A stretch of DNA of 64,000 nt, taken from contig CM059431.1 of assembly GCA_030390025.1 (NCBI GenBank), positions 101,868,001-101,932,000 on the forward strand, written 5' to 3'. The translations under genes and the position numbers were made by a program. The stretch's first letter is position 1. Every line of letters begins with the position of its first letter. This document shows positions 3,621 to 47,117 of this stretch, one piece after another. A model generated the notes under the pieces. That model was given only the letters and a program-made list of their open reading frames with translations. It did no database searches and was not told where the DNA came from. This DNA is from Squalus acanthias. Its lineage: Eukaryota.

Positions 3621-4619
3621 TTGAACTTTGTGGTGTGATAGACATAGCTCAGATTTAGCACCGCCACATTTTCACAGCAGACTCCTAAGTAAGATGGAGT
3701 AACACACTTATCATTATAAAATAGTTGGAATCCAACTGACAGTGGGCAGCGCCAACTGCGAGTATAATATAAATATATACTTTGTAGCTAGGTCTATCTC
3801 TGTAACCTCCTCCAGACCCACAACCCTCCGAGTTCTCTGCGCTCCTCTGATTCTGGCCTCTTGTCCATCCCCAATTTTCATCGCTCCACCATTGACGGCC
3901 GTGCCTTCAGCTGCCTGGGCCCTGGAACTCCCTCCCTAAACCTCTCCACCTCTCTCCCCTCCTTTAAGACGCTCCTTAAAACCTTCCCTCTTTGACCAAG
4001 CTCTCGGTCACCCGTCCTTTTGCGGCTTGACCTCAAATTTTGGGACGTTTTGCCACGTTAAAGGCGCAATATACATGAAAGTAGTTGTTGTCTTAAGGTA
4101 ACCGCTGGCCAGCGATGAACTGCATTGCACAGGAACTAGCCTTTGAAGTCTACACCTGGGAGACTCCTTTCATCCACGAGTTAGCGTGAAATAATTACCT
4201 GTCGTTTCCAAAGGCATTCAGATTGCAGTGCATTTGAACATAAGAATTAGGGGCAGGAGTCGGCCATTCGGCCCCTCGAGCCTGCTCCGCCATTCAATAA
4301 CATCATGGCTGATCTGATCTTGGCCTCAACTCCACTTTCCCGCCCGCTCCCCATAACCGTCGACTCCCCTGTAGCTCAAATATCTGTCCTCCGCCTTGAA
4401 TATATTCAGTGACTCCACCTCCACAGCTCTCTGGGGAAGAGAATTCCAGAGATTTCCCGACCCTCTGAGAGAAGAAATTCCTCCTCATCTCCGCCTTAAA
4501 TGGGCGACCCCCTTATCCTGAGACTGTGCCCCCCTTTAGATCAGTGATTTTGTGAGGAACTTGTAACATCTATCTTTGGTGGAATGTTTCTGATTAAAAT
4601 TATGTTGCATCTTCCTTAG

Positions 4620-4810
4620 CTATGCACTACTTTCCCTATGTGAAGAAGCGCATTCCTGTCATGTACCAACAGCATGTCGATCTGAACCCTATTGAGGTTG
4701 CAATCGATGAAATGAGCAATAAAGTCACAGAACTCCAAATATTGTGCTCGTCTTCTGACGTTGATATGATCAAGTTACAGCTGAAACTCCAGGGCAGTGT
4801 CATTGTACAG
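4620..4810 (+). CDS. DOCK9: DOCK9 (zizimin1) coding exon, DHR-2 GEF domain
   Basis: ttccttAG|C acceptor and CAG|GTGATT donor; encodes [63 protein letters not shown], recognisable DOCK-D subfamily DHR-2 sequence. Confidence 0.95.
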
Positions 4811-5699: not shown

Positions 5700-8600
5700 A
5701 TATATATGTATAATATATTAGATATTAGAGAGATATGGCGATATTAGAGAGATATAGATATATTTAGAGAGATATGGGTATTAGAGATATGGATATATTT
5801 AGAGATATATTAAAGAGATATGGATATATTTAGAGATATATTAGAGAGATGGATATATTTAGAGATACATTAGAGAGATATGGATATATTTAGAGATACA
5901 TTAGAGAGATATGGATATATTTAGAGAGATATGGGTATTAGAGATATGGATATATTTAGAGAGATATTATAGAGATATGGATATATTTAGAGATATATTA
6001 AAGAGATATGGATATATTTAGAGATACATTAGAGAGATATGGATATATTTAGAGAGATATGGGTATTAGAGATATGGATATACTTAGAGAGATATAGAGA
6101 TATGGATATATTTAGAGATACATTAGAGAGATATGGATATATTTAGAGATATATTAAAGAGATATGGATATATTTAGAGATACGTTAGAGAGATATGGAT
6201 ATATTTAGAGATATATTAGAGAGATATGGATATATTTAGAGATATATTAAAGCGATATGGATATATTTAGAGATACATTAGAGAGATATGGATATATTAG
6301 AGAGATATGAATATATTTAGAGAGATGGGTATTAGAGATATGGATATATTTAGAGATACATTAGAGAGATACGGATATATTTAGAGATATATTAGAGAGA
6401 TGGATATATTTAGAGATACATTAGAGAGATGGATATATTTAGAGATACATTAGAGAGATATGGATATATTTAGAGAGATATGGGTATTAGAGATATGGAT
6501 ATATTTAGAGAGATATTATAGAGATATGGATATATTTAGAGATATATTAAAGAGATATGGATATATTTAGAGATATATTAGCGAGATATGGATATATTTA
6601 GAGATATATTAGAGCGATATGGATATATTTAGAGAGATATGGGTATTAGAGATATGGATATATTTAGAGAGATATAGAGATATGGATATATTTAGAGATA
6701 TATTAAAGAGATATGGATATATTTAGAGATATATTAGAGAGATATGGATATATTTAGAGATATATTAAAGAGATATGGATATATTTAGAGATATATTAGA
6801 GAGATATGGATATATTTAGAGATATATTAGAGAGATATGGATATATTTAGAGAAGAGAGATATGGATATATTTAGAGAGATGGATATTAGAGATATGGAT
6901 ATATTTAGAGATACCACTAGAGAGATATGGATATATTTAGAGATATATTAGAGAGAATGGATATATTAGAGATATATTAGAGAGATATGGATATATTTAG
7001 AGATACATTAGAGAGATATGGATATATTTAGAGAGATATGGGTATTAGAGATATGGATATATTTAGAGAGATATGGGTATTAGAGATATGGATATATTTA
7101 GAGATATTAAAGAGATATGGATATATTTAGAGATAATTAGAAGAGATATGGATATATTTAGAGATATATTAGAGAGATGGATATATTTAGAGATATATTA
7201 GAGAGATATGGATATATTTAGAGATATATTAAAGCGATATGGATATATTTAGAGATACATTAGAGAGATATGGATATATTAGAGAGATATGAATATATTT
7301 AGAGAGATGGGTATTAGAGATATGGATATATTTAGAGATACATTAGAGAGATACGGATATATTTAGAGATATATTAGAGAGATGGATATATTTAGAGATA
7401 CATTAGAGAGATGGATATATTTAGAGATACATTAGAGAGATATGGATATATTTAGAGAGATATGGGTATTAGAGATATGGATATATTTAGAGAGATATTA
7501 TAGAGATATGGATATATTTAGAGATACATTAGAGAGATATGGATATATTTAGAGAGATATGGGTATTAGAGATATGGATATATTTAGAGAGATATTATAG
7601 AGATATGGATATATTTAGAGATATATTAAAGAGATATGGATATATTTAGAGATATATTAGCGAGATATGGATATATTTAGAGATATATTAGAGCGATATG
7701 GATATATTTAGAGAGATATGGGTATTAGAGATATGGATATATTTAGAGAGATATAGAGATATGGATATATTTAGAGATATATTAAAGAGATATGGATATA
7801 TTTAGAGATATATTAAAGAGATATGGATATATTTAGAGATATATTAAAGAGATATGGATATATTTAGAGATATATTAGAGAGATAGGGATATATTTAGAG
7901 ATATATTAGAGAGATATGGATATATTTAGAGAGATATGGGTATTAGAGATATGGATATATTTAGAGAGATATAGAGATATGGATATATTTAGAGATATAT
8001 TAAAGAGATATGGATATATTTAGAGATATATTAAAGAGATATGGATATATTTAGAGATATATTAGAGAGATAGGGATATATTTAGAGATATATTAAAGAG
8101 ATATGGATATATTTAGAGATATATTAAAGAGATATGGATATATTTAGAGAGATATTATAGAGATATGGATATATTTAGAGATATATTAAAGAGATATGGA
8201 TATATTTAGAGATATATTAGCGAGATATGGATATATTTAGAGATATATTAGAGAGATATGGATATATTTAGAGAGATATGGTATTAGAGATATGGATATA
8301 TTTAGAGAGATATAGAGATATGGATATATTTAGAGATATATTAAAGAGATAGGGATATATTTAGAGATATATTAAAGAGATATGGATATATTTAGAGATA
8401 TATTAGAGAGATATGGATATAGTTAGAGATATATTAGAGAGATATGGATATATTTAGAGAGATATGGGTATTAGAGATATGGATATATTTAGAGATATAT
8501 TAAAGAGATATGGATATATTTAGAGATATATTAGAGAGATAGGGATATATTTAGAGATATATTAAAGAGATATGGATATATTTAGAGATATATTAAAGAG

Positions 8601-9215
8601 ATATGGATATATTTAGAGATATATTAGAGAGATATGGATATATTTAGAGATATATTAGAGAGATATGGATATATTTAGAGATATATTAGAGAGATATGGA
8701 TATAGTTAGAGATATATTAAAGAGATATGGATATATTTAGAGATATATTAGAGAGATATGGATATATTTAGAGATATGGATATATTTAGAGATATATTAG
8801 AGAGATATGGATATAGTTAGAGATACATTAGAGAGATGTGGATATATTTAGAGATACATTAGAGAGATATGGATATATTAGAGAGATATTAGAGAGATAT
8901 GGATATATTTAGAGATATATTAAAGAGATATGGATATATTTAGAGATATATTAGAGAGATATGGATATATTTAGAGATATTAGAGAGATATGGATATATT
9001 TAGAGATGCATTAGAGAGATATGGATATATTTAGAGATACATTAGAGAGATATGGATATATTAGAGAGATATGGATATATTTAGAGAGATATATTAGAGA
9101 GATATGGATATATTAGAGAGATATATTAGAGATATGGATATATTACAGAGATATATTAGAGAGATATGGATATATTTAGAGAGATATGGATATAGAGAGA
9201 TATATTAGATATCTA
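5700..9215. repeat. About 3.5-kb minisatellite, unit about 31 bp, GGATATATTTAGAGATATATTAGAGAGATAT
   Basis: Directly visible tandem array in a DOCK9 intron; + strand almost devoid of C. Confidence 0.98.
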
Positions 9216-9449: not shown

Positions 9450-9578
9450 GTAAGGCCGGCATTTCGGAGCTGTTATGATGGAAGAGGACGAGACGTGGTT
9501 TTAGGTTTCACAGTACAAAAAATGTCGGGACCTGCTGCCGATCGGTCTGCGTCAATGGGTTGCTTTCTGTGTTCACAG

Positions 9579-9717
9579 GCAGTTTGTTGAGGCTTGTGGG
9601 CAAGCCTTGATCGTAAACGAACGTTTGATCAAGGAAGATCAGGTAGAATACCAAGAGGAAATGAAGGCAAACTACAGAGAAATGGTTCGCGAGCTGTCCG
9701 ACATCATGCGTGAGCAG
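9579..9717 (+). CDS. DOCK9: DOCK9 coding exon
   Basis: ttcacAG|G...GAGCAG|GTGAGT after a 129-nt intron; [46 protein letters not shown]. Confidence 0.95.
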
Positions 9718-9840
9718 GTGAGTTTAGGTTCTAAACCAGGTTTGAAACACCTACAGGATCATAGAATAGAACAGCACAGAAGGAGGCCATTCGGCCCATC
9801 GAGTCTGCGCCGCCTCTTTCGAAAAGCTCTCCAATTAGTC

Positions 9841-18051: not shown

Positions 18052-18540
18052 AAAAGCAAAACACAGCGGATGCTGGAAATCTGAAATAACAATGCTGGAA
18101 ACACTCAGCCGGCCAGGCAGCATCTGCAGAGAGAGAAGTGGAGTTAACGTTTCAGGTCGATGACCTTTCGTCAGAACTGGAAAAAGTTGGAGATGTAACA
18201 GGTTTTTAAGCAAGTGCAGGGGCTGGGAGAGAGGGGGGAGGGGAGGAAAGAACAAAAGGGAAGGTCTGTGACAGGGTGGAAGGCAGGAACGATTAAATGA
18301 CAAAAGGGATGATGGTGCGAGGCAAAAGGAGATGGTAATGGGACAAGTAAAGAAACAAAAGATGGGTCTAGAGGAGGTGTAAATGGGAATGGCAGCATCA
18401 TCAGCAGCTGCCGTCCGAATAAATGTGGGTAGAGGTTATGATCTGAAATTGTTGAACTCAATGTTGAGTCCGGAAGGCTGTAAAGTACCTAATCGAAAGA
18501 TGAGGTGCTGTTCCTTGAGCTTCGTTGGAACAGTGTAGGA
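18052..18540 (-). mobile_element. Penelope-like 3' fragment (same family as 28701-29170)
   Basis: Near-collinear with 28701-29170; encodes the end of the endonuclease (KLKEQHLIFRLGTLQPSGLNIEFNNFRS). Confidence 0.85.
18142..18178 (-). ncRNA. Minimal type I hammerhead ribozyme motif (second family)
   Basis: Minus strand agtt-CTGACGA-a-aggtc-atc-gacct-GAAA-cg-TT-aact; AACGTT palindrome. Confidence 0.78.
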
Positions 18541-22943: not shown

Positions 22944-23187
22944 AATGTGTACAACCTTTTTTTTTATCAAACCCTGTCAAGCACAATGCACCGTTCTGGT
23001 CTCCATATTACAGAAAGGATATAGAAACACTGCAGAAGGTGCAAGAAAGATTGACAAGGATGATAACCAGAACTGAGAGGTTACAACCATCAGGAAAGGC
23101 TGAACAGGTTGGGGCTCTTTACTCTAGAAAAGAGAAAAATGAGAAGTCGCACAACACCAGGTTATAGTCCAACAGATTTATTTAATT

Positions 23188-23226
23188 TTACAAGCTTTCG
23201 GAGCGGTTCGCTCCTTCCTCAGGTAA
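23188..23226 (-). ncRNA. Minimal type I hammerhead ribozyme motif
   Basis: Exact reverse-complement copy of 24371-24409. Confidence 0.8.
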
Positions 23227-24370
23227 GTTAGCAGTGAGAGAATCTCCCAGAATTCACAATTTAAACACAGACAAAATCTATTCAAATCTTTCCCTACATC
23301 AAAGACACACTAAGAGCACAGCCCAGACAATGAGATGTGTCCCAGGGGGTCCAACGTGTCAAACCACCTGCTGGCTGCATATCCTGTCAATTTGTGTTGG
23401 TTCTTGTGTTAGTCTTTTTTTAAAAAAAACACCTGGGAAGACCGGCCATGATGTCAAGTCACGTTCTGTATCGTGACATGAACCCGATATCGCGATTGAG
23501 GCCATCCTCATGAGTGCGGAACTTGGCTATCAGTTTCTGCTCTATGATTTTGCGCTGTCGTGTATCCCGAAGGCCGCCTTGGAGAACGCTTACCCGCAGA
23601 TCCGAGGCTGAATGCCCCTGGCTGCTGAAGTGTTCCCCGACTGGGAGGCAACCCTCCTGCCTGACGAGCAGATTACCCATCTTTCAGGAGAACAGCAACC
23701 AAGACACCACACAACCCTGCCACGGCAACCTCTGCAAGACATGCCAAATCATGGACACAGATACCATCATCACACGTGAGGACACTACCCACCAGGTACA
23801 CGGTACATACTCATGTGACTCGGCCAACATTGTCTACCTGATACGTTGCAGTAAAGGATGCTCCAGAGCATGGTACATCGGCGAGACCATGCAGACACTG
23901 AGACAACGTATGAACGGACACCGCGCAACAATCGCCAGGCAGGAGGGTTGCCTCCCAGTCGGGGAACACTTCAGCAGCCAGGGGCATTCAGCCTCAGATC
24001 TGCGGGTAAGCGTTCTCCAAGGCGGCCTTCGGGATACATGACAGCGCAAAATCATAGAGCAGAAACTGATAGCCAAGTTCCGCACTCATGAGGATGGCCT
24101 CAATCGCGATATCGGGTTCATGTCACGATACAGAACGTGACTTGACATCATGGCCGGTCTTCCCAGGTGTTTTTTTTTAAAAGACTAACACAAGAACCAA
24201 CACAAATTGACAGGATATGCAGCCAGCAGGTGGTTTGACACGTTGGACCCCCTGGGACACATCTCATTGTCTGGGCTGTGCTCTTAGTGTGTCTTTGATG
24301 TAGGGAAAGATTTGAATAGATTTTGTCTGTGTTTAAATTATGAATTCGGGGAGATTCTCTCACTGCTAAC

Positions 24371-24409
24371 TTACCTGAGGAAGGAGCGAACCGCTCCGAA
24401 AGCTTGTAA
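24371..24409 (+). ncRNA. Minimal type I hammerhead ribozyme motif
   Basis: ttac-CTGAGGA-a-ggagcg-aac-cgctcc-GAAA-gc-TT-gtaa; palindromic loopless stem III; followed by AATAAA at 24415. Confidence 0.8.
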
Positions 24410-24961
24410 AATTAAATAAATCTGTTGGACTATAACCTGGTGTTGTGCGAATTCTCATTTTTGTCCACCCCAGTCCAACGCCGGCATCTCCACATCATGA
24501 CCTCTAGAAAAGAGAAGACTGAGAGGTGACCTGATATTTTCCAGTAAAAGTAGACGTAGAGAAGATGTTTCCCAAACTAGGGGCCATAAATATAAGATAG
24601 TCACCAGTAAATCCAATCAGGAATTCAGGAGAAACTTCTTTACCCAGAGAGTGGTGAGAATATGGAACTCGCTACCACAGGGAGTGGTTGAGGCGATTTG
24701 CAGAGATACATTTAAGGGGAAACTCGATAAACACATGAGGGAGATGGGAATAGAAGGTTATGCTGATGGGGTGAGATGAGGTAGGGTTGCGAGGAAGCTC
24801 GTGTGGAGCAGAAACACCGGCACGGACCAGTTGGGCCGAATGGCCTGTTTCTGTGCTGGAGACTTGATGCAAGTATTTGGTGATTTGTAAATTTGTGCTG
24901 ACCCAAGTTAATGATGGTATTATTAAGACAAAAAGTACAAGCTAAAAAGATTACAACAATA

Positions 24962-28799: not shown

Positions 28800-29349
28800 G
28801 GAAAAAGTTGGAGATGGAACAGGTTTTTAAGCAAGTGCAGGGGCAGGGAGAGGGGGGAGGGGAGGAAAGAACAAAAGGGAAGGTCTGTGATAGGGTGGAA
28901 GGCAGGAGAGATTAAATGACAAAAGGGATGATGGTGCGAGGCAAAAGGAGATGGTAATGGGACAAATTAAGAAACAAAAGATGAGTCTAGATGAGGTGTA
29001 AATGGCAATGGTAGAATCATCAACAGCTGCCGTCTGAAAAAAAATAGGGCCAAGGTTATGGTCTGAAATTGTTGAACTCGATGTTGAGTCCAGAAGGCTG
29101 TAAAGTGCCTAATCGAAAGATGAGGTGCTGTTCCTCGAGCTTACGTTGAACTTCATTGGAACAGTGCAAGAGGCCGAGGACGGAGAGGTCAGAGTGGGAG
29201 TGGAGCGGGGAATTAAAGTGACAAGCGACCGGAAGCTCGGGGTCACCCTTATGGACTGAACAGAGGTGTTCCTCCAAGCGGTCACCCAATCTGCGTTTGG
29301 TCTCCCCAATGTAGAGGAGACCACATCGTGAGCAGCGAATACAGTACAC

Positions 29350-30097
29350 AATGAATGGTAGGACCCTAGGAAGGACAGAGGATCAGAGGGACCTTGGTGT
29401 GCATGTACATAGATCCCTGAAGGCAGCAGGACAGGTAGATAAGGTGGTTAAAAAGGCATATGGGATACTTGCCTTCATTAGCCGAGGCATAGAATTTAAG
29501 AGCAGGGAGGTTATGATGGAGCTGTACAAAACGCTAGTTAGGCCACAGCTGGAATACTGTGTGCAGTTCTGGTCGCCACACTATAGGAAGGATGTGATTG
29601 CATTGGAGAGGGTGCAGAGGAGATTCACCAGGATGTTACCTGGGCTGGAGCGCTTCAGCTATGACGAAAGACTGGACAGGCTGGGGTTGTTTTCCTTAGA
29701 GCAGAGAAGGCTGAGGAGGGACCTGATTGAGGTGTACAAAATTATGAGGGGCATAGATAGGGTAGATAGAAAGGAACTTTTCCCCTTAGTAGAGGGGTCA
29801 ATAACCAGGGGACATAGTTTCAAGGTAAGGGGCAGGAGGTTTAGAGGGGATTTGAGGAAAAACATTTTCACCCAGAGGGTGGTTGGAATCTGGAACTCAC
29901 TGCCTGAAAGGGTGGTAGAGGCAGGAACCCTCACAACATTCAAGAAGCATTTAGATGAGCACTTGAAACGCCATAGCATACAAGGCTACGGACCAAGTGC
30001 TGAAAATGGGATTCGAATTAGACAGGACTTGATGGCCGGCGCGGACACGATGGGCCGAAGGGCCTCTTTCTGTGCTGTATAACTCTATGACTCTATG
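29350..30097 (+). mobile_element. CR1-type LINE 3' fragment inserted in the Penelope element
   Basis: RT C-terminus [13 protein letters not shown]...FTQRVVGIWNSLP, (CTCTATGA)n tail, TSD AGTACAC at 29343-29349 and 30098-30104. Confidence 0.92.
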
Positions 30098-31234
30098 AGT
30101 ACACCAAATTGCAAGAAGTACAAGTAAATCACTGTTTCACTTGGAAGGAGTGTTTGGGGCCCTGGACAGTGGGAAGGGAGAAGGTAAAAGGGCAGGTGTT
30201 GCATCTCCTGTGTTTGCACGGGAAGGTGCCATGGGAAAGGGAAGGGGTGTTGGGGGTGATAGAGGAGTGGACCAGGGTGTCGCGAAGGGAGTGGTCCCTT
30301 CGGAATGCTGAAAGGAGAGGTGAGGGGAAGATGTGTTTGGTGGTGGGATCACGCTGGAGGTGGCGGAGGATGATCCGTTGAATGTGGATGCTGGTGGGGT
30401 GAAAGGTGAGGACAAGGGGAACCCTATCGTGGTTCCGGGAGGGAGGGGAAGGTGTGTTAACCACGGTAGAGAGGAGTCCTCGGTTGAGGAAAAATGAAGA
30501 CATGTCAGAAGCACTGGTATGGAAGGTGGTATCGTCAGAACAGATGCGGCGTAGATGGAGAAACTGGGAGAATGGAATAGAGTCCTGACAGGAGGCGGCG
30601 TGGGAGGAAGTGTAGTCCAGGTAGCTGTGGGAGTCAGTGGGCTTATAGTGAATGTTTATCAATAGCCTCCCAGAGATAGAGACAGAGAAGTCGAGGAAGG
30701 GAAGGAAAGAGTCAGAGATGGACCATGTGTAGGTGCGGGAAGGGTGGAAATTGGAAGCAAAGTGAATGAAATTTTCTAGTTCAGGGCAAGAGCAGGAAAT
30801 GGCACCAATACAGTCATCAATGTACCGGAAAAAGAGGTGAGGGAGGGGACCGTAGTAGGACTGGAACAAAGAATGTTCCGCATATCCCACGAAAAGGCAG
30901 GCATAGCTAGGGCCCATGCGGGTTCCCATAGCAACACCTTTAATTTGGAGGAAGTGAGTGGAATCAAAGGAGAAGTTGTTCAATGTGAGTACAAGTTCAG
31001 CCAGGCGAAAGAGGGCAGTGGTGGAAGGGGACTGGTTGGGCTTCTGTTCAAGGAAGAAGCGGAGTGCTCTCAGGCCATCCTGGTGGGGGATGGAGGTGTA
31101 GAGGGATTGGACATCCATAGTGAAAAGGAGACGGTGGGGGCCAGGAAACTGGAGACTGTTAAAGTGGCGGAGGGCATTTAAAGAGTCGCGGATGTAGGTG
31201 GGAAGAGACTGGACAAGGGGAGAAAAAATAGAGT

Positions 31235-31472
31235 TGTTGAGGCTGCCGCGAAACACGAATTAAGGCTGAATCCATTTGTGTTAAACAAGAGACTTTTTAA
31301 TCACAGCATGGCACAAAATGGCAGACTGAAAAGCTCCCAGAACTCTCTGGGTAAAACCTGAGGCCCCGCCCCCTTCTGCCTTAAAGGTAAGGTGCCTTAA
31401 AGGGAAGGTGCTGGAAATTTGTCCACAGACGGAAGAGTGGATTATGCCCATTTTAGGTGGCGATCCGCCACA
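31235..31472 (-). repeat. 3' LTR of the Gypsy element
   Basis: Preceded on the minus strand by the purine-rich tract GGGGGGAG (polypurine tract, about 31476-31483). Confidence 0.95.
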
Positions 31473-31492: not shown

Positions 31493-34400
31493 TTAGGAGG
31501 TGTGGACGAGACGGTGCGGCGGTCTGATGGGCCGGCCGGAGCGGCTCTTGTAGGACGCCGGTGGACGTGGAATGGCCGGGCGTGGAGCAGCCGGGTGAAC
31601 CGGCTTGAGGGCAGGTCGGCCGCGTGGAGGTGGACGAGCTATAGGGACCTGCTCACCGGGCTCCGAGTGTGCTGGCTTGAGTCGGTCAACCGACACTTTT
31701 TCGGTCCTGTCGCCCACTTGCAGGGTGAAAAATTTGTCCCCAGCCTGTAGCACCTTGTAGGGCCCGTCGTACGGGGGTTGAAGGGGTCCGCGGTGGGCGT
31801 CGTGCCGGACGAAAACAAACCGTGCCTGGTGCAGGCTTAGTGGGACGTGTGAGGTGGATTCGCCGTGTCGGGCAATGGGCACCGGGGCGAACTGCAGCGC
31901 CGGTGAGGCGAAGTCGTGGCGTTGCTGGTCGGCTGACCAGGGTGTCGTGGCGGTGGGCAGGAACTCGCCGGGTACGCGCAGCGGCTGACCGTACACGAGC
32001 TCTGCTGCCGATGCGTGGAGGTCTTCTTTAACCGCGGTGCGCAGGCCGAGGAGGACCCACGGAAGTCGGTCGGTCCAGGCGCCGTCTTGGAGGCTGGCTC
32101 GAAGAGATGCCTTCAAGGATCTGTGGAACCGCTCACACAGTCCGTTGGCTTGGGGGTGGTACGCTGTGGTGCGGTGAATGGTCACCCTGAGATTACGTGC
32201 GACAGCGGTCCAGAGTTCAGAGGTAAATTGCGGACCTCTGTCCGATGTCATGTCGGAGGGGACGTGAACTGTGCGACCCAGGTGCTGACGAAGGCTCTGG
32301 CGATGTCGGCGGTGGTGGTAGAGGTCAGTGGAATTGCCTCAGGCCAGCGTGTGGTGCGGTCAACGATGGTCAGCAAGTGCGTGTGGCCTTGCGACGGCGG
32401 CAGGGGCCCGACGATGTCCACGTGGATGTGGTCGAATCTCCGTGAGGGGACGGTAAACTCCTCGAGGGGTGCTTTCGTGTGTTGCTGTACCTTGGCCCAT
32501 TGGCAGGCTAGGCAGGAGTTGGCCCAAGTATGCACATCCTTGCGAAGGCCGCGCCAGACAAAGCGGTCGGCTACCAATTTGATGGATGCGCGGGCGCCGG
32601 GGTGGGAGAGGTTGTGGAGAATGTCGAATACCCGGCGGCGCCAGGACGCTGGGACGACGGGCCGAGGTTGACATAGGGATATGTCGCACTTGACCGTGAC
32701 TGCGGTCGGGCCACAGGCGACGTCGGCCAGGCGTAGCCCTAGTAGGTTGGTGGGTGCGGAGAGCAGATCAGGGTCGGTGATCTGGTCTGCTGCGAGTTGA
32801 GCGTAGTCGACTGCTAGGCGTGCGGCGTGGATGGCGGGGCGGGAGAGGCAGTCGGCTACCACATTGTCTCGGCTGGAGACGTGTTGGATGTCCGTGGTGA
32901 ACTCGGACACTGCCGCGAGCTGGCGCTGCTGCCTGGCGGACCAGGGGTCGGTTGTCTTTGCCATTGCGAATGTCAGGGGCTTGTGGTCGACAAACGCAGT
33001 GAAGGGGTGGCCCTCAAGCAAAAACCGGAAATGGCGGACCGCCAGGAACAGCGCGAGGAGCTCGCGGTCGAAGGTGCTGTACTTGACCTCCGGGGGGCGT
33101 AGTTGGCGGCTGAAGAAGGCAAGTGGTTGCCAGGCGCCGTCGACCCACTGCTCATACACGGCGCCGACCGCGTGGTCGGAGGCGTCCGTGGTGAGCGCTA
33201 CCCTGGCATTGGGCCGTGGGTGCGCGAGCAGGGTGGCGTTGGCGAGCACGGTCTTGGTGGAATCGAAGGCGGTGGACGCATCTGCCGTCCATTCGACCGC
33301 CATCTTGCCGCTCCTGCCCCGGAGAGCTTCATACAGGGGCCTCATGAGGGACGCCGCTTTGGGGATGAAACGGTTATAGAAATTCACCATCCCGAGGAAC
33401 TCCTGGAGGCCTTTGATGGTGGTGGGGCGGGGAAATTGTTGGACGGCCTGCACCTTGGTGGGCAGGGGAATGGCCCCAGCATGGGTGATGTGGTGGCCGA
33501 GGAAGTCGATCTTGTCCAGGCCGAACTGGCATTTGGCTGGGCTGAGGATGAGCCCGTGGTCGCTGAGGCGCCCGAACAGGATGCGAAGGTGTTCGAGGTG
33601 TTCCTGCTTGGAGGAACTGGCTACCAGGATGTCGTCCAGGTAGACGAACAGGAACTTCAGGTCCCGAAGGACCGAGTCCATGAGCCGTTGGAATGCCTGG
33701 GCCGCGTTTTTGAGGCCGAAGGGCATCCGCAGGAACTCGAACAGGCCGAAGGGGGTGATTACGGCCGTCTTGGGGACGTCCGCGGGGTGGACGGGGACTT
33801 GGTGGTAGCCGCGCACCAGGTCGACCTTGGAAAAGACTGAGCGGCCGGCCAGTCTAGCCGAGAAGTCCTGAATGTGCGGCACGGGGTACCGATCAGGGGT
33901 GGTGGCGTCATTGAGGCGGCAGTAATCCCCGCAGGGGCGCCAACCTCCGCCTGGTTTGGGGGCGATGTGGAGTGGGGAGGCCCAGGGACTGTTGGAGCGG
34001 CGGATGATGCCGAGCTGTTCCATGGTGGCAAACTCGGTCCGCGCGATCTCCAGTTTGGCCGGGTCCAGCCTGCGGGCGTGGGCTTACATTGGGGGGCCTG
34101 TGGTGGGGATGAAGTGTTCCACCCCATGTTTGGCGGCCTCCGCGGAGAAGGTCGGATTGGTAAGGGCCGGGAATTCGGCCAGAAGTGCCGAGTAGTCATC
34201 CGTGGCCCGGGCGTGGCACTGTGACGCCATGTCGGCGGGTTGACGGGGGGCCATGGCGCCCAGGATGGGGGACATGGTGTTCATGTCCACGAGGCGGTGA
34301 CGAGGGATGTCTACCAGTAGGCCGTGGGTGCACAGGAAATCTGCGCCGATGAGGGGGGAGAGCACCTTGGCAGTGATGAACTCCCATCGGTAGCGGTGAC

Positions 34401-35290
34401 CAGCGAGGTCGAGGGTGACTGTCCGGGTGCCATACGTCCGGATTTCCGAGCCGTTAGCAGCAGCCAGCGCCCTTTTGGATGTCGAGGGAGGAGGCCGGGA
34501 TGATGCTGTGCTGAGCCCCAGTGTCACACAGGAACCGGCGGCCGGTTTTGTCATCCGTGACGAACAGCAGGGAGCCTGCGTGGCCCACGGCCATCGCGGG
34601 GGCTGGAACGGGGGCGGACTTGAAAGAGCAGGGAGGTGTGCACCGTTGTGCCCTGGCGCCGAACCGTGCGTGGTAGTAACAGTGGCCCGGGTTAGTGGGG
34701 CGTGAAGGCCCCGTGGGCCTGGTGACAGGCCCTTGTGGCCGCGTGCTGGATGGTGAGGGGCGCGCCCAGGCCTTGGCTGCCAGGTCCGGAGTGACGTCGT
34801 GGCTGGAGTGAGCGGACAGCAGCTTGTCGGCCTCATTGGCCAGGGCTTCCAGGTTCGTGAGGCCGGACGCCACGATCGCTGGGCGGATGCTGAGAGGGAG
34901 CTGGCGGATGAACAGCGTGCGGAAGAGGGATCCGGGTGGGCTCTCGTCGGTGAGGGAGAGCATGTGGGAGAGGAGGTCTGACGGTGAGGCATCACCGAGG
35001 CCTGGAAGGTCGAGGAGGTGGCAGTTTCGCTGATATGCCGAGGCCGTAAATTTTTTAAGGAGCGCTGTCCTGAGATGTGCGTACTTGCCTTCCTCTGGTG
35101 GGTTCTGCAGCGTTGTCCAAACCTTGGAAACTGCGGCGCTACCGAGTGATGTGACGAGATAGTCGTACTTCGTCCCATCTGTGGTGATATTTCGCAGCCG
35201 GAAGTGAGATTCAGCTTGGAGAAACCAGGCTTCGGGCTGGTTTTCCCAAAACTCCAGCAGTTTCACGGAAACTGCGTTCGTGTCCGCCAT
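31493..35290 (-). pseudogene. Disrupted gag-pol of the Gypsy element
   Basis: Gag CYYH-x9-C-x3-C, protease CDTGA, RT YLDD, RNase H LTTDASD, integrase HHCC, D..D35E and GPY motifs; frameshift near 34460, in-frame TAA at 34084-34086, frameshift near 32260. Confidence 0.93.
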
Positions 35291-35330
35291 TGCAGTGCTC
35301 GGAATACGTTCTGAGCATCGGGGTCACCAA

Positions 35331-42800: not shown

Positions 42801-43201
42801 TTTTTTGTTTCCAGCTAGGTGTCTGTCAGTATAGCATTTAAGAAATAGGAGCTGGAGTCGGCCATTTGGCCCTACGAGCCTGCTCCGCCATTCAATAAGA
42901 TCATGGCTGATCTTTGAACTCAACTTCCAACTTTCCTGCACTATCCCTAAATCCCTTGATTCTCTTAGGATCCAAAAATCTATCGATCTCTGTCTTGAAT
43001 ATACTCAATGACTGAGCATCCACAGCCCTCTGGGGTAGAGAATTCCAAAGATTCAGAACCCTGAGTGAAGAAATTTCTCCTCATCTCAGTTCTAAATGGC
43101 TGACCCCTTATTCTGATGCGGAGATGCCGGCGTTGGACTGGGGAGGACAAAAATGAGAAGTCGCACAACACCAGGTTATAGTCCAACAGTTTTATTTGAA
43201 A

Positions 43202-43239
43202 TTACGAGCTTTCGGAGCTGCTGCCCCTTCGTCAGGTAA
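43202..43239 (-). ncRNA. Minimal type I hammerhead ribozyme motif
   Basis: Minus strand ttac-CTGACGA-a-ggggc-agca-gctcc-GAAA-gc-TC-gtaa (one G-U pair in stem II). Confidence 0.78.
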
Positions 43240-43335
43240 AGGTACAGTGAGGGAATCTATTACACAGATTGTATCTCTGCAGACACATTGTTCTCTGTGT
43301 ATATATACTGTGTAATCGATTCCCTCACTGTACCT

Positions 43336-43373
43336 TTACCTGAAGAAGGAGCAGCAGCTCCGAAAGCTCGTAA
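43336..43373 (+). ncRNA. Minimal type I hammerhead ribozyme motif (sense strand, SLC15A1 intron 2)
   Basis: ttac-CTGAAGA-a-ggagc-agca-gctcc-GAAA-gc-TC-gtaa. Confidence 0.8.
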
Positions 43374-43645
43374 TTTTAAATAAAACTGTTGGACTATAAC
43401 CTGGCGTTGTGCGACTTCTCACCCTTATTCTGAGACTGTGATCCCTGGTTCTAGACTCCCCAGCCAGGGAAAACATCTGCCCTGTCAAGCCCCTTAAGAA
43501 TTTTATGTTTCAATGAGATCACCTCTCATTCTTCTAAACTCTAGGGAATATAGGCCTAGTCTACTCAATCTGTCCTCATGGGACAATCCCCCCATCCCAG
43601 GAACCAGTCTGGTGAACCTTTGTTGCACTCCCTCTATGGCAAGTA

Positions 43646-44009
43646 CAGGAAACTCTTTATTAACCGGCACCCAAATATCCGGAAATCTCTCTTAACCGGC
43701 AAAATTCTTGAGTAGGTAACCGGGGTTTTCCTTCATCTCTCGTTTAAAATTAACTTTAAAAAAAACCCCGAGGCGTTTGCCTTGTATCGGAGCGTGTAGA
43801 TTGGGAGGGGAATGTGCAGCCCGGGTAGGCAGCGGACACGACAGATGGTCAGCTGGCGGTCTCCGGTGAGACGGAGCTCCGAATGCAGGCGCATGTCAGT
43901 GTGTACGGGGCTCTCGTACGTTGGGAGATATAACTCTCCGTTATCCGGACTTTTTGATTAACCGGCACCACGCTGGTCCCGTCGGTGCCGGTTAATAAAG
44001 AGTTTCCTG
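43646..44009. mobile_element. Tc1/mariner (pogo/Tigger-like) MITE
   Basis: Perfect 26-bp TIR CAGGAAACTCTTTATTAACCGGCACC, TA duplication on both sides, no ORF, inserted in a CR1 fragment. Confidence 0.92.
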
Positions 44010-44344
44010 TATATCTTTCCTTAGGTAAGGAGGCCAAAACTGTACACAATACTCCAGGTGTGGTCTCACCAGGGCCCTATAGAATTGCAGTAAGACCTCT
44101 TTACATCTGTGCAACAAAAATTAATTTGTACAATACACATAAGAACTAGTTGTCCATCAAGATATACAAGAAGCAAACATGTAGGTTATACAGCTGCAAA
44201 ATCAAGGATTCTATTTTGGACAGGTAGCTACATATTATTATCTAGTTCTTTATTACAGACAGAGTACGTCTAGTTTTACAGGACCTTGCTTATTTTGATA
44301 AAGATCAGATGTCATTTGCCTGTTTTTCTTTTGTTTTCTCGCAG

Positions 44345-44429
44345 CCGAGTTGCTTCGGATACCCTGTCAGCATCTTCTTCATTGTGGTCAATGAATTCTG
44401 TGAAAGATTTTCCTACTATGGAATGCGAG
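44345..44429 (+). CDS. SLC15A1: SLC15A1 exon 3 (POT-family ExxERFxYY motif)
   Basis: cgcAG|CCG...CGAG|GTACTT; PSCFGYPVSIFFIVVNEFCERFSYYGMR. Confidence 0.97.
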
Positions 44430-44666
44430 GTACTTTCAATTTTGTAAGCGAAGGATTGTTACCCTGAATTCCACATAACCTTGAGCGCTACAAGGAAATT
44501 GGTGTCTCTCAGTCCTCCCTTGTTGCTAAGCTCTATGGGGTTGAGAAAATATTTGGTGTAGTGTTTGCTCACGGAACAGTGAAGATGCTGCCTGTAATCC
44601 TTTATCCTAATTCATAACTGAGAAGTCGCACAACACCAGGTTATAGTCCAACAGTTTTATTTGAAA

Positions 44667-44703
44667 TTACGAGCTTTTGGAGCTCTGCTCCTTCTTCAGG
44701 TAA
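44667..44703 (-). ncRNA. Hammerhead motif with a mutated core (GAAA>AAAA)
   Basis: Identical to 44792-44828 except the catalytic G12 is A, consistent with CpG deamination. Confidence 0.7.
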
Positions 44704-44791
44704 AGTGAGGGAATACAAATCGATTACACAGTATATATAAAAATGAGAAGTCGCACAACACCAGGTTATAGTCCAACAGTTTTATTTGAAA

Positions 44792-44828
44792 TTACGAGCT
44801 TTCGGAGCTCTGCTCCTTCTTCAGGTAA
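44792..44828 (-). ncRNA. Minimal type I hammerhead ribozyme motif (intact member of the tandem pair)
   Basis: Minus strand ttac-CTGAAGA-a-ggagc-aga-gctcc-GAAA-gc-TC-gtaa. Confidence 0.8.
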
Positions 44829-45141
44829 AGTGAGGGAATACAAATCGATTACACAGTATATATAGACAGAGAACAATGTGTCTGCAGAGATACAATCTGT
44901 CAGGGAGGCATTACATCAAAGACACATCAGAGTACAGCTAAGACAATGAGGTGGGGTCACAGGGGGTCCAACGTGTCAAATACTGCCGTCTGCAGTTAGG
45001 CTTTTAACTTTTTTTTATAAAAACTGGAAAAACAGACAACGATGTCGAGTCACGTTCTGTAGCGTGACATGAACCCGATTCATAACGTGATTGAAGATGA
45101 GCTTCCACACAAAATCTTCCCAACGAGCCTCTGACCAGCGA

Positions 45142-45780
45142 CAACAACAACTTGCATTTGTACAGCGCCTTTAACCTAGTATAATGACCCAAGGCACTTC
45201 ACAGGAGCGTGATCAGACAACATTTGACACCGAGCCACATAAGGAGACATTAGGACAGGTGACCAAAAGCTTGATCAAGGTGATAGGTTTTAAGGAGCGT
45301 CTTAAAGGAGGAGAAAGAGGTAGCGAGGTGGAGAGGTTTAGGGAGGGAATTCCAGAGCTTAGAGCCCAGGCAGCTGAAGGCACGGCCGCCAATGGTGGAG
45401 CGATTAAAATCGGTGATGCGCAAGAGGCCTGAATTGGAGGAGCGCAGAGATCTCAGAGGGTTGTGGGGCTGGAGGAGATTACAGAGACAGGGAGGGGCGA
45501 GGCCATGGAGGGATTTGAACATAAAGATGAGAATTTTAAAATCGGGGCGTTGACGGCCTTGGAGCCAATGTAGGTCAGCGAAGCACAAGGGTGATGGGTG
45601 AACGGGACTTGGTGCGAGTTAGGACACGGGCAGTGGAGTTTTTGGATGAGTTCAAGGTAACGGTGGGTGGAAGGTGGGAGGCCGAACAGGAGAGCGTCGG
45701 AATAGTCGAGTCTAGAGGAAACAAAGGCCTGGATGAGGGTTTCAGCAGCGGATGAGCTGAGGCAGGGGCGGAGACGGGCA
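45142..45780 (-). mobile_element. L2-type LINE 3' fragment
   Basis: ADLHWL...GGRAFSCLGSKLWNSLP...FKTLLKTY; (CAA)n on the + strand. Confidence 0.9.
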
Positions 45781-45954
45781 GCCTAGAAGCATGGAGCTAA
45801 AGAACAACGTAGGACTGGAGGAACCCGCTTTATGATATTAAGGATTATGTAGCAATTCAGTTCACTAACTTCCTATTTTAGTAAAGGTGAAACATTTGTT
45901 AATAAATTAGTATTATGGTCTGACGAGTCTGTATTCTGTGTCTTTTTCATTCAG

Positions 45955-46096
45955 CGGTGCTTGTCATGTATTTCCGCTATTTTCTGCGCTGGGATGAGGA
46001 TCTCGCGACGGCTGTTTATCACGCCTTTGTTGCTCTGTGCTACTTAGCACCCATCCTTGGTGCAATTGTCGCTGACTCCTGGTTGGGAAAATTCAA
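45955..46096 (+). CDS. SLC15A1: SLC15A1 exon 4 (PTR2 signature 1)
   Basis: ttcAG|CG...TTCAA|GTAGGT; AVLVMYFRYFLRWDEDLATAVYHAFVALCYLAPILGAIVADSWLGKFK. Confidence 0.97.
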
Positions 46097-46409
46097 GTAG
46101 GTATTATAAAAATAATTATAGAGTCATAACATGGAGCCATAGAGTCATAACATGGAGCCATAGAGTCATGACGGCACAGAAGGAGGCCATTCGGCCCATC
46201 GAGTCCGTTCCGGCTCTCTGTAGAGCAATCCAGTCAGTCCCATTTCCCCCGCTCTGTCCCCGGAGCCCTGCAAGTTTATTTCCCTCAAGTGCCTATCCAG
46301 TCTCCCCTTGAAAACATTGAGTGTCTCCGCTTCCACCAGTTCCGTCGGCAGCGAATTCCAGGTCATCACCACTCGCTGTGTTTCATAAGCAAAAATGTAA
46401 CAACAATAA

Positions 46410-47117
46410 AACTAAATGGGGGTGTATGTACACACACCTTTGAAGGTGGCAGGACTAGTTGATAATGCTGTGAAAAAAAGCATACGGGATCCTGGGCTTT
46501 ATAAATAGAGGCACAGAGTACAAAAGCCAGGAAGTTATGATGAACCTTCATAAATCACTGGTTAGGCCCCAGTTGGAGTACTGTATCCAATTCTGGGCAC
46601 CGCACTTTCGGAAGGATGTGAAGGCCTTGGAGAGGGTGCAGAGGAGATTTATTAGAATGGTACCAGTGATGAGGGACTTCAGTTATGTGGAGAGACTGGA
46701 GAAGCTGGGATTGTTCTCCTTAGAGTAGAGAAGGTGAAGGGGAGATTTGAAAGAGGTGTTCAAAATCATGAACAGTTTTGATAGAGTAAATAAGGAGAAA
46801 CTGTTTCCAGTGGCAGGAGGGTCGGTAACCAGAGGACACAGATTGAAGCTAATTGGCAAAAGAACCAGAGGGGGAGATGAGGACAGTTTTTTTTTACACA
46901 GCGAGTTGTTGTGATCTGGAATGCGCTGTCTGAAAGGAAGCAGATTCAATAATAACTTTCAAAAGGGAATTGGATAAATACTTGAACAGGAAATATGTGC
47001 AGGGCTGTGGGGAAAGAGCAGGGGGGAGTGGGACTAATTGGAGAGCTCTTTCAAAGAGCCGGCACAGGCACGATGGGCTGAATGGCCTCCTCCTATGCTG
47101 TAGGAGTCTATGATTGT
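46410..47117 (+). mobile_element. CR1-type LINE 3' fragment
   Basis: LVRPQLEYCIQFWAPHFRKDVKALERVQRRF; an opposite-strand CR1 tail lies at 46118-46380. Confidence 0.88.

Follow-up and report, generated by a model that had tools for sequence, protein, structure and literature searches.

A short insertion in the DNA of Squalus acanthias raises the question of whether a doubled ribozyme at the end of a Penelope-like element is one more ordinary copy of that element or the start of a circle-making element of the retrozyme kind. The insertion lies in a stretch of 64,000 nucleotides, referred to below as the window, and a first-pass annotation had described it as retrozyme-like. We conclude that it is probably an ordinary inert Penelope copy rather than a new circle-making element.

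The insertion and its host gene

The insertion is 459 bp long and lies between perfect copies of a 9-bp target site duplication (TSD), ATTCATAAC; a match of nine letters at a fixed place has a chance of about 5e-6. The left 246 bp form a direct tandem with a period of 125 (2.0 copies, 99%). Both the insertion with its TSD and the tandem at its terminus are thus as the first-pass annotation had described them. The two units differ at one of their 121 common positions (44678 T vs 44803 C, a CpG transition), and the GC content of the 125-bp unit is 36.8%. The earlier term non-coding is loose: it suits the unit, which has no ORF, but the insertion as a whole opens with the final eight codons and the stop of a Penelope ORF. 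The parts of the insertion are collected in Table 1.

Table 1. The insertion, its parts and the neighbouring exon, in window positions
Feature	Position	Strand	Remarks
SLC15A1 exon (residues 8-34 of the solved protein)	44345..44429	+	189 nt from the insertion, opposite strand
TSD, left copy, 9 bp	44610..44618		from the sequence
Downstream unit	44619..44739	-	TATATATA 44739-44732, TCACTTT (A 44706), broken hammerhead, AATAAA 44661
Hammerhead with G12>A	44667..44703	-	C3 44699, position 12 at 44678 (A), C17 44671
Junction, five T of family sequence	44739..44743	-	last T is the first T of the downstream TATA box
Upstream unit	44744..44864	-	TATATATA 44864-44857, TCACTTT (A 44831), intact hammerhead, AATAAA 44786, family terminus
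Intact minimal type I hammerhead motif	44792..44828	-	C3 44824, G12 44803, C17 44796
Weak predicted hairpin, -6.1 kcal/mol, at the UTR end directly before the TATA box	44865-44901	-	from folding
Unrepeated 3' UTR of the element	44865..45049	-	about 70% identity with the 23-24 kb copy
Last 8 codons and stop of the Penelope GIY-YIG ORF (GFMSRYRT*)	45050..45076	-	same peptide ends the 23.1-24.5 kb copy
TSD, right copy	45078..45086		first two letters also fit the element's continuation, a 2-nt microhomology at the 5' truncation

The exon to the left of the insertion matches residues 8-34 of SLC15A1 (E 1.5e-12, vs 1.4e-9 for SLC15A2) and the next exon matches residues 35-81; both fit SLC15A1 better than SLC15A2. 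We take the exon at 44345-44429 to be exon 3 in the numbering of human SLC15A1; a search for SLC15A1 exons upstream of 44345 gave no clear result. A public contig from X7, which is probably an RNA run, covers 44344-44429 only. The distance of 189 nt from this exon to the insertion, downstream and on the opposite strand, agrees with the earlier placement antisense in an SLC15A1 intron, about 190 bp past the exon. SLC15A1 transcription reads the opposite strand and so would not make the ribozyme.

Further upstream, a DOCK-family gene has exons at 4598-4810 and 9505-9750 (+) (Pfam DHR-2 lobe C, E 0.009), and DOCK9 adjoins SLC15A1 in human synteny. A 3.4-kb satellite with a 31-bp period occupies 5720-9185.

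Penelope parentage

On the minus strand the first codons of the insertion spell GFMSRYRT and a stop, and a sister copy at 23.1-24.5 kb, with which the insertion has 70% identity over 334 nt, closes its GIY-YIG reading frame with the same peptide. Pfam GIY-YIG matches the sister copy with E 1.5e-4 (22.5 bits vs a cut-off of 22.6). Since the ORF end and the 3' UTR are common to the insertion and a GIY-YIG-bearing sister, the insertion is a 5'-truncated Penelope-like element, and the Penelope origin proposed for it earlier holds. It is a member of the endonuclease-positive (EN+) Penelope-like elements by every feature tested: homology in the GIY-YIG ORF end and 3' UTR, a hammerhead with a palindromic stem in the pseudo-LTR, two termini with an optional tail, 5' truncation, a TSD and tandem or inverted arrangement.

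The sister copy also has a C-X4-C-X2-C linker ahead of GIY-YIG, at 23.7 kb, and a CX2-5CxxC linker is reported to mark Neptune/Nematis elements (PMC8557442). The parent of the insertion would then be of the Neptune/Nematis type, a clade assignment made through the linker of the 70%-identical 23.7-kb neighbour only. Like the EN+ elements of this type as they are described in PMC8557442, the insertion has a GIY-YIG ORF end, a 3' UTR with a hammerhead, an optional tail of about 40 nt, 5' truncation, a TSD and the tandem and inverted arrangements of its family. Unlike them, it has no RT sequence and consists of two truncated pieces in direct order with the longer one upstream. Among the copies in the window, none of this family was identified as carrying an RT. 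A literature search on shark, Penelope and hammerhead, judged by title or the start of the abstract, gave nothing about this family.

Several other elements are present in the window. The copy at 23135-24498 is a truncated Penelope with inverted pseudo-LTRs that flank the CX4CxxC linker and GIY-YIG and with a TSD of about 14 bp; one of its arms carries a stop where the other has Arg. A palindromic mini-insertion of the same family as the doubled insertion lies in the preceding intron (43116-43421) and has two inverted hammerhead ends and a 12-bp TSD; its tail is on one arm only, and the left arm stops just before the TATA tract. At 18174 (-) and 28795 (-) the window has minimal hammerheads of another family, whose palindrome is ACGT, and pieces of Penelope-like RT and endonuclease ORFs at 29056-29382 and 30129-31259 are near these hammerheads. 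Judged from the ORF list alone, about 32248-35323 (-) holds LTR-retrotransposon-like gag/pol frames (RT, RNase H and integrase-like), with matching repeats of 16-bp period on either side, at 31377 and 35473.

Hammerhead motifs

Each unit carries, on its minus strand, a 4-bp stem I followed by CUGAAGA, an extra A, a 5-bp stem II and GAAA; then come the palindrome AGCU, which forms stem III without a loop III, and C17. These motif positions, together with a descriptor search, bear out the minimal hammerhead with an AGCU palindrome that had been noted in each unit. The descriptor finds seven intact minimal hammerheads in the 64-kb window, a count that leaves out the G12>A motif at 44678 because it fails the descriptor, and none in 200 dinucleotide shuffles. 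An Rfam search of 43000-47000, up to E 10, gave three matches, none of them at the gathering score and none a hammerhead. Among five distinct hammerhead copies in the window the stem cells are paired in 45 of 45 cases with zero compensatory changes, and most of the variation falls at N7, loop II and H17.

The motifs resemble the minimal hammerheads of metazoan Penelope-like elements (PMC4209133) in their 4-bp stem I, the extra nucleotide before stem II, G10.1-C11.1, the palindromic 15.2-16.2 and the lack of a loop III. They differ from them in that stem II has 5 bp, the motifs are 125 nt apart rather than about 3 kb, one core is broken and the motifs are known from sequence. The earlier statement that minimal hammerheads require a partner is correct.

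The broken core is that of the downstream unit, in which position 12 is A. In the public contigs C makes up 96-100% of the depth at 44678 in all four runs, and therefore G12>A is the derived state. The published rates for G12A range from a slowing of more than 500-fold to about a million-fold (PMC2553840), which, with the A at 44678, supports the earlier expectation of at most one cut.

Two termini and one junction

Six ends of the family are present in the window: four stop within 5 nt of a tail-less site, and two extend past it by a tail of about 40 nt. In the insertion, each unit ends at the tail-less terminus, the downstream one directly against the TSD (44619). For comparison, in PAc, the Poseidon element of Anolis carolinensis, two RT start sites are reported to define the tail (PMC11167929). 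By analogy, the two termini of the shark family match the position of these two start sites. PAc as described there also shares with the insertion a hammerhead upstream of the two termini and AT-rich targets; the insertion is of a different clade, and protein-assisted cleavage is a feature of PAc (PMC11167929).

The junction between the units is informative about how the doubling arose. Its letters at 44739-44743 fit the family continuation at five of five positions and the local flank at three of five, so the upstream unit was likely templated from an element and not duplicated in place. In addition, one TSD surrounds both units, which points to a single insertion event. The upstream unit continues for 213 nt into unrepeated UTR and the ORF end, and it does so without a second junction.

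TA-rich ends favour slippage. It might therefore be supposed that a single truncated copy was inserted and that 125 bp were doubled later through slippage or repair, and the near identity of the units would suit such a history. However, flank letters would be expected at the junction, whereas family letters are seen there and the downstream unit lacks them, so that two extra changes would be needed; the breakpoint also coincides with the family terminus. We consider this local duplication very unlikely.

What the public contigs add

Four of 24 runs were compared with 44330-44780 at 85% likeness, and the matching contigs number 9,089 from X2, 8,113 from X5 (from 55% of the run), 1,096 from X7 and 27 from X6. 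The hammerhead end of this Penelope family is very abundant, with 9,089 contigs in one run, although contig depth is no measure of copy number. The depth is concentrated on the hammerhead end; along the flank it stays level in X2 and X5, equal to that of one listed record. Many contigs come loose at 44619 and 44732-44739, where they continue into the tail or into mixed flanks. At 44732, some 12 nt inside the tail region, there is a second group of such loose ends, with 42 and 26 contigs. The occurrence of family sequence in X7 places it in a probable RNA run, from contigs that give no strand, ends or level.

Eight joints were found in these contigs. Seven are same-strand, and six of the seven land -10 to +6 nt from the terminus, which puts their periods at 36-71 nt as a minimum; the first piece never includes a whole hammerhead, and 44330-44780 is a stretch that could not reveal joins longer than one unit. 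Each joint is represented by one contig per run with 20-24 letters on its short side at 85% likeness, which is below the tool's caution level, and so the periods suggest, weakly, that head-to-tail restarts appear to occur with many lengths. The head-to-tail joint from 44652 to 44739 implies a period of 44 nt, has five tail letters in between and may represent a small multi-copy variant.

The junction of this particular insertion is harder to trace in the contigs. None of the 32 pieces listed, with 18,445 more behind them, crosses 44739-44744, and a locus-specific contig would have about 60 letters and may rank lower. Intron contigs of both DNA samples enter the insertion by 24 letters with zero differences, while the bridging criterion was 31 letters. 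An exact scan for the junction in metagenome contigs found none, in a collection that barely holds animal DNA and is therefore mute on copy number. Exact scans for the family motif in viral, metagenome and prokaryote genome contigs, which likewise contain hardly any animal DNA, also found none.

A probable restart of reverse transcription

Taken together, we think it quite likely that the insertion is a 5'-truncated Penelope-like end whose terminal hammerhead module was doubled by a restart of reverse transcription at the usual start site within one insertion, and that it is inert today. The following order of events is proposed. The endonuclease would have cut the intron, and the RT would have copied about 120 nt before stalling in the TATATATA tract at the foot of the weak hairpin (-6.1 kcal/mol). 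It would then have re-engaged at the same start site, five bases further out, through a 1-nt microhomology and copied 339 nt, and the product would have been joined to the target through a 2-nt microhomology. The downstream core would have lost its G12 later, to CpG deamination. Any antisense RNA made today would then be cut no more than once in its double-hammerhead fold, after 44671, without releasing a monomer.

Partial tandems are a stated hallmark of Penelope-like elements and are reported to make up to 30% of the D. virilis copies (PMC2377424; PMC8557442). In the textbook form a truncated copy is upstream of a full-length copy (PMC8557442; PMC2377424). The order here departs from that form, since the longer piece is upstream of the shorter one and neither is full length. 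As for the ribozyme, the report on PAc states that insertion in vitro did not need hammerhead cleavage and gives zero RNA-seq reads that start or end at the cleavage site (PMC11167929).

The doubled end may instead have formed earlier, at a source element, and then been copied to this place from one linear RNA. The source could have doubled its end through a restart, or another copy could have landed in the TA tract of its pseudo-LTR. The insertion would then belong to a Penelope subfamily in which the terminal module is doubled, and which still depends on the Penelope protein, not on circles, for its movement. PAc is reported to be able to nick AT-rich DNA within its own pLTR (PMC11167929), and the linker motif of the clade has been hypothesised to bias insertion toward microsatellites (PMC8557442). 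The joint from 44652 to 44739 is present in both DNA runs at 2-4x the flank depth, so some junctions may be common to a few loci. The identity of the units except for one CpG change is expected with or without a source element. Against this history, family contigs in X2, X6 and X7 leave at 44737-44739 into the UTR, which indicates that the common form of the family lacks the 44739-44743 junction, and none of the three TSDs in the window is a TA repeat. A doubled source element therefore seems to us rather unlikely.

Promoter-like motifs in the unit

The repeated unit begins at the first T of the TATATATA TATA box (44739, and 44864 in the upstream unit), and the A of an initiator-like TCACTTT is 33 nt past the unit start and 7 nt ahead of C3. 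Four such arrangements of TATA and TCACTTT are present in the window, of which two are in the insertion. The same two motifs, 20 bp apart, are described from a rotifer pseudo-LTR (PMC3846280), and the Drosophila pseudo-LTR is reported to be a promoter, though a TATA-less one (PMC2377424). With these precedents, and with both motifs in each unit, each unit may be a module of promoter, ribozyme and RT start that faces antisense toward the exon; for the promoter role, this is a reading of consensus motifs alone. A unit that starts exactly at a TATA box could mean that the place is more than a stall site. The TA tract is a natural place for a jump as well.

If it is more than a stall site, the restart at the TATA box would have duplicated a promoter-plus-hammerhead module, and a double-hammerhead RNA started at the 44831 initiator would have released a 125-nt circle until the CpG change occurred. 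We regard this sequence of events as a long shot. The circle it calls for, as part of the same claim and with as little chance, would carry its own TATA, initiator and RT start site.

Does the tandem make a retrozyme?

A further reading would be that the ancestral dimer was transcribed, that its double hammerhead released a 125-nt monomer (44796 to 44671), and that the monomer circularised and spreads as a family of its own. The two hammerheads are in register with a palindromic stem III, the unit is low in GC, as given above, with a TATA and initiator-like motif in each copy, and a nested double-hammerhead structure, a topology known from PMC4209133, can be drawn for the tandem. Dimers and trimers of the schistosome minimal hammerhead cleave weakly (PMC4209133), and pLTR-derived retrozymes of 51-972 bp are reported from vertebrates, including the one chondrichthyan sampled (bioRxiv 2026.07.22.740005). 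With so much against it, as described below, we hold this origin to be highly improbable.

First, the drawn structure is not favoured. The constrained double-hammerhead fold is 14.5-17.9 kcal/mol above the free ensemble in three constructs and 16.9-22.2 in three more that start near the initiator. The gap with the native spacer is 16.4 kcal/mol, while 150 shuffled spacers give 16.2 +/- 3.9. The region itself has no folding advantage over shuffles (z = +0.75), and a competing hairpin absorbs stem II and the palindrome. Nearest-neighbour energies leave the hammerhead core unscored, and the fold was run without a positive control, so the gap does not prove that the ribozyme is inactive. The claim of an ancestral double hammerhead that excised a unit of about 125 nt thus does not find support in the fold, in which shuffled spacers do equally well. 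In published work, cleavage of PAc needs its protein (PMC11167929), and eight of nine predicted Xenopus dimers are reported as uncleaved (bioRxiv 2026.07.22.740005).

Second, a 125-nt circle cannot have been the template of this insertion, because the upstream unit extends into 213 unrepeated nt of UTR and ORF. The tandem has two units only, one with a broken core. The intact upstream core is inferred to cut after the downstream C17 (44671), which would be the sole site in the modelled double-hammerhead fold. Cutting at the second site would need the broken core, whose G12A costs more than 500-fold to about a million-fold, so that release of a monomer is not expected at present.

Third, the insertion can be compared to known retrozymes. 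The characterised ones are described as having canonical hammerheads in units of 150-450 bp (PMC7229834), and the 2020 definition calls for a canonical hammerhead with helix III and loop-loop contacts (PMC7229834). A later working definition of a retrozyme dimer asks for two consecutive units with complete hammerheads and admits minimal motifs (bioRxiv 2026.07.22.740005). Like the non-LTR retrozymes of these two sources (PMC7229834; bioRxiv 10.64898/2026.07.22.740005), the insertion has a pLTR-derived tandem, a type I hammerhead, low GC and a unit free of ORFs. It has only two units, however, and these are embedded in a longer Penelope end. Its short non-coding unit of 125 nt is below the 150-450 bp given in PMC7229834 and within the 51-972 bp given in bioRxiv 2026.07.22.740005.

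The insertion resembles a retrozyme dimer, yet it fails three of the tested retrozyme features today: a complete type I hammerhead is not found in at least two consecutive units (G12>A, 44678), the hammerhead is a minimal motif with no loop III rather than a canonical one with helix III and loop-loop contacts, and the insertion does not consist of repeat units only. Because C is the majority letter at 44678, the working definition of a dimer likely applied to the locus before the CpG change. The retrozyme-like label of the first-pass annotation can be kept to that extent, since the ancestral locus likely fitted the dimer definition as it is given in bioRxiv 2026.07.22.740005; beyond this, the evidence gives no support for more than a partial-tandem Penelope insertion.

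Meaning of the insertion

As read here, the insertion matters little, for this DNA is rich in Penelope ends that bear minimal hammerheads (seven intact ones in 64 kb), and the doubling of such ends is an established by-product. It is, at the same time, a neat example for two questions, how tandems form in a Penelope insertion and how pseudo-LTR pieces lead to retrozymes; the second link has been proposed in bioRxiv 2026.07.22.740005. If it were true that the restart at the TATA box gave rise to a nascent retrozyme, the locus would represent a one-step route from pseudo-LTR to retrozyme, together with a pair of promoters that fire antisense into SLC15A1. And if the junction turned out to be multi-copy, or the unit from TATA to terminus to make circles, this family would offer a compact test system for the origin of retrozymes in cartilaginous fish.
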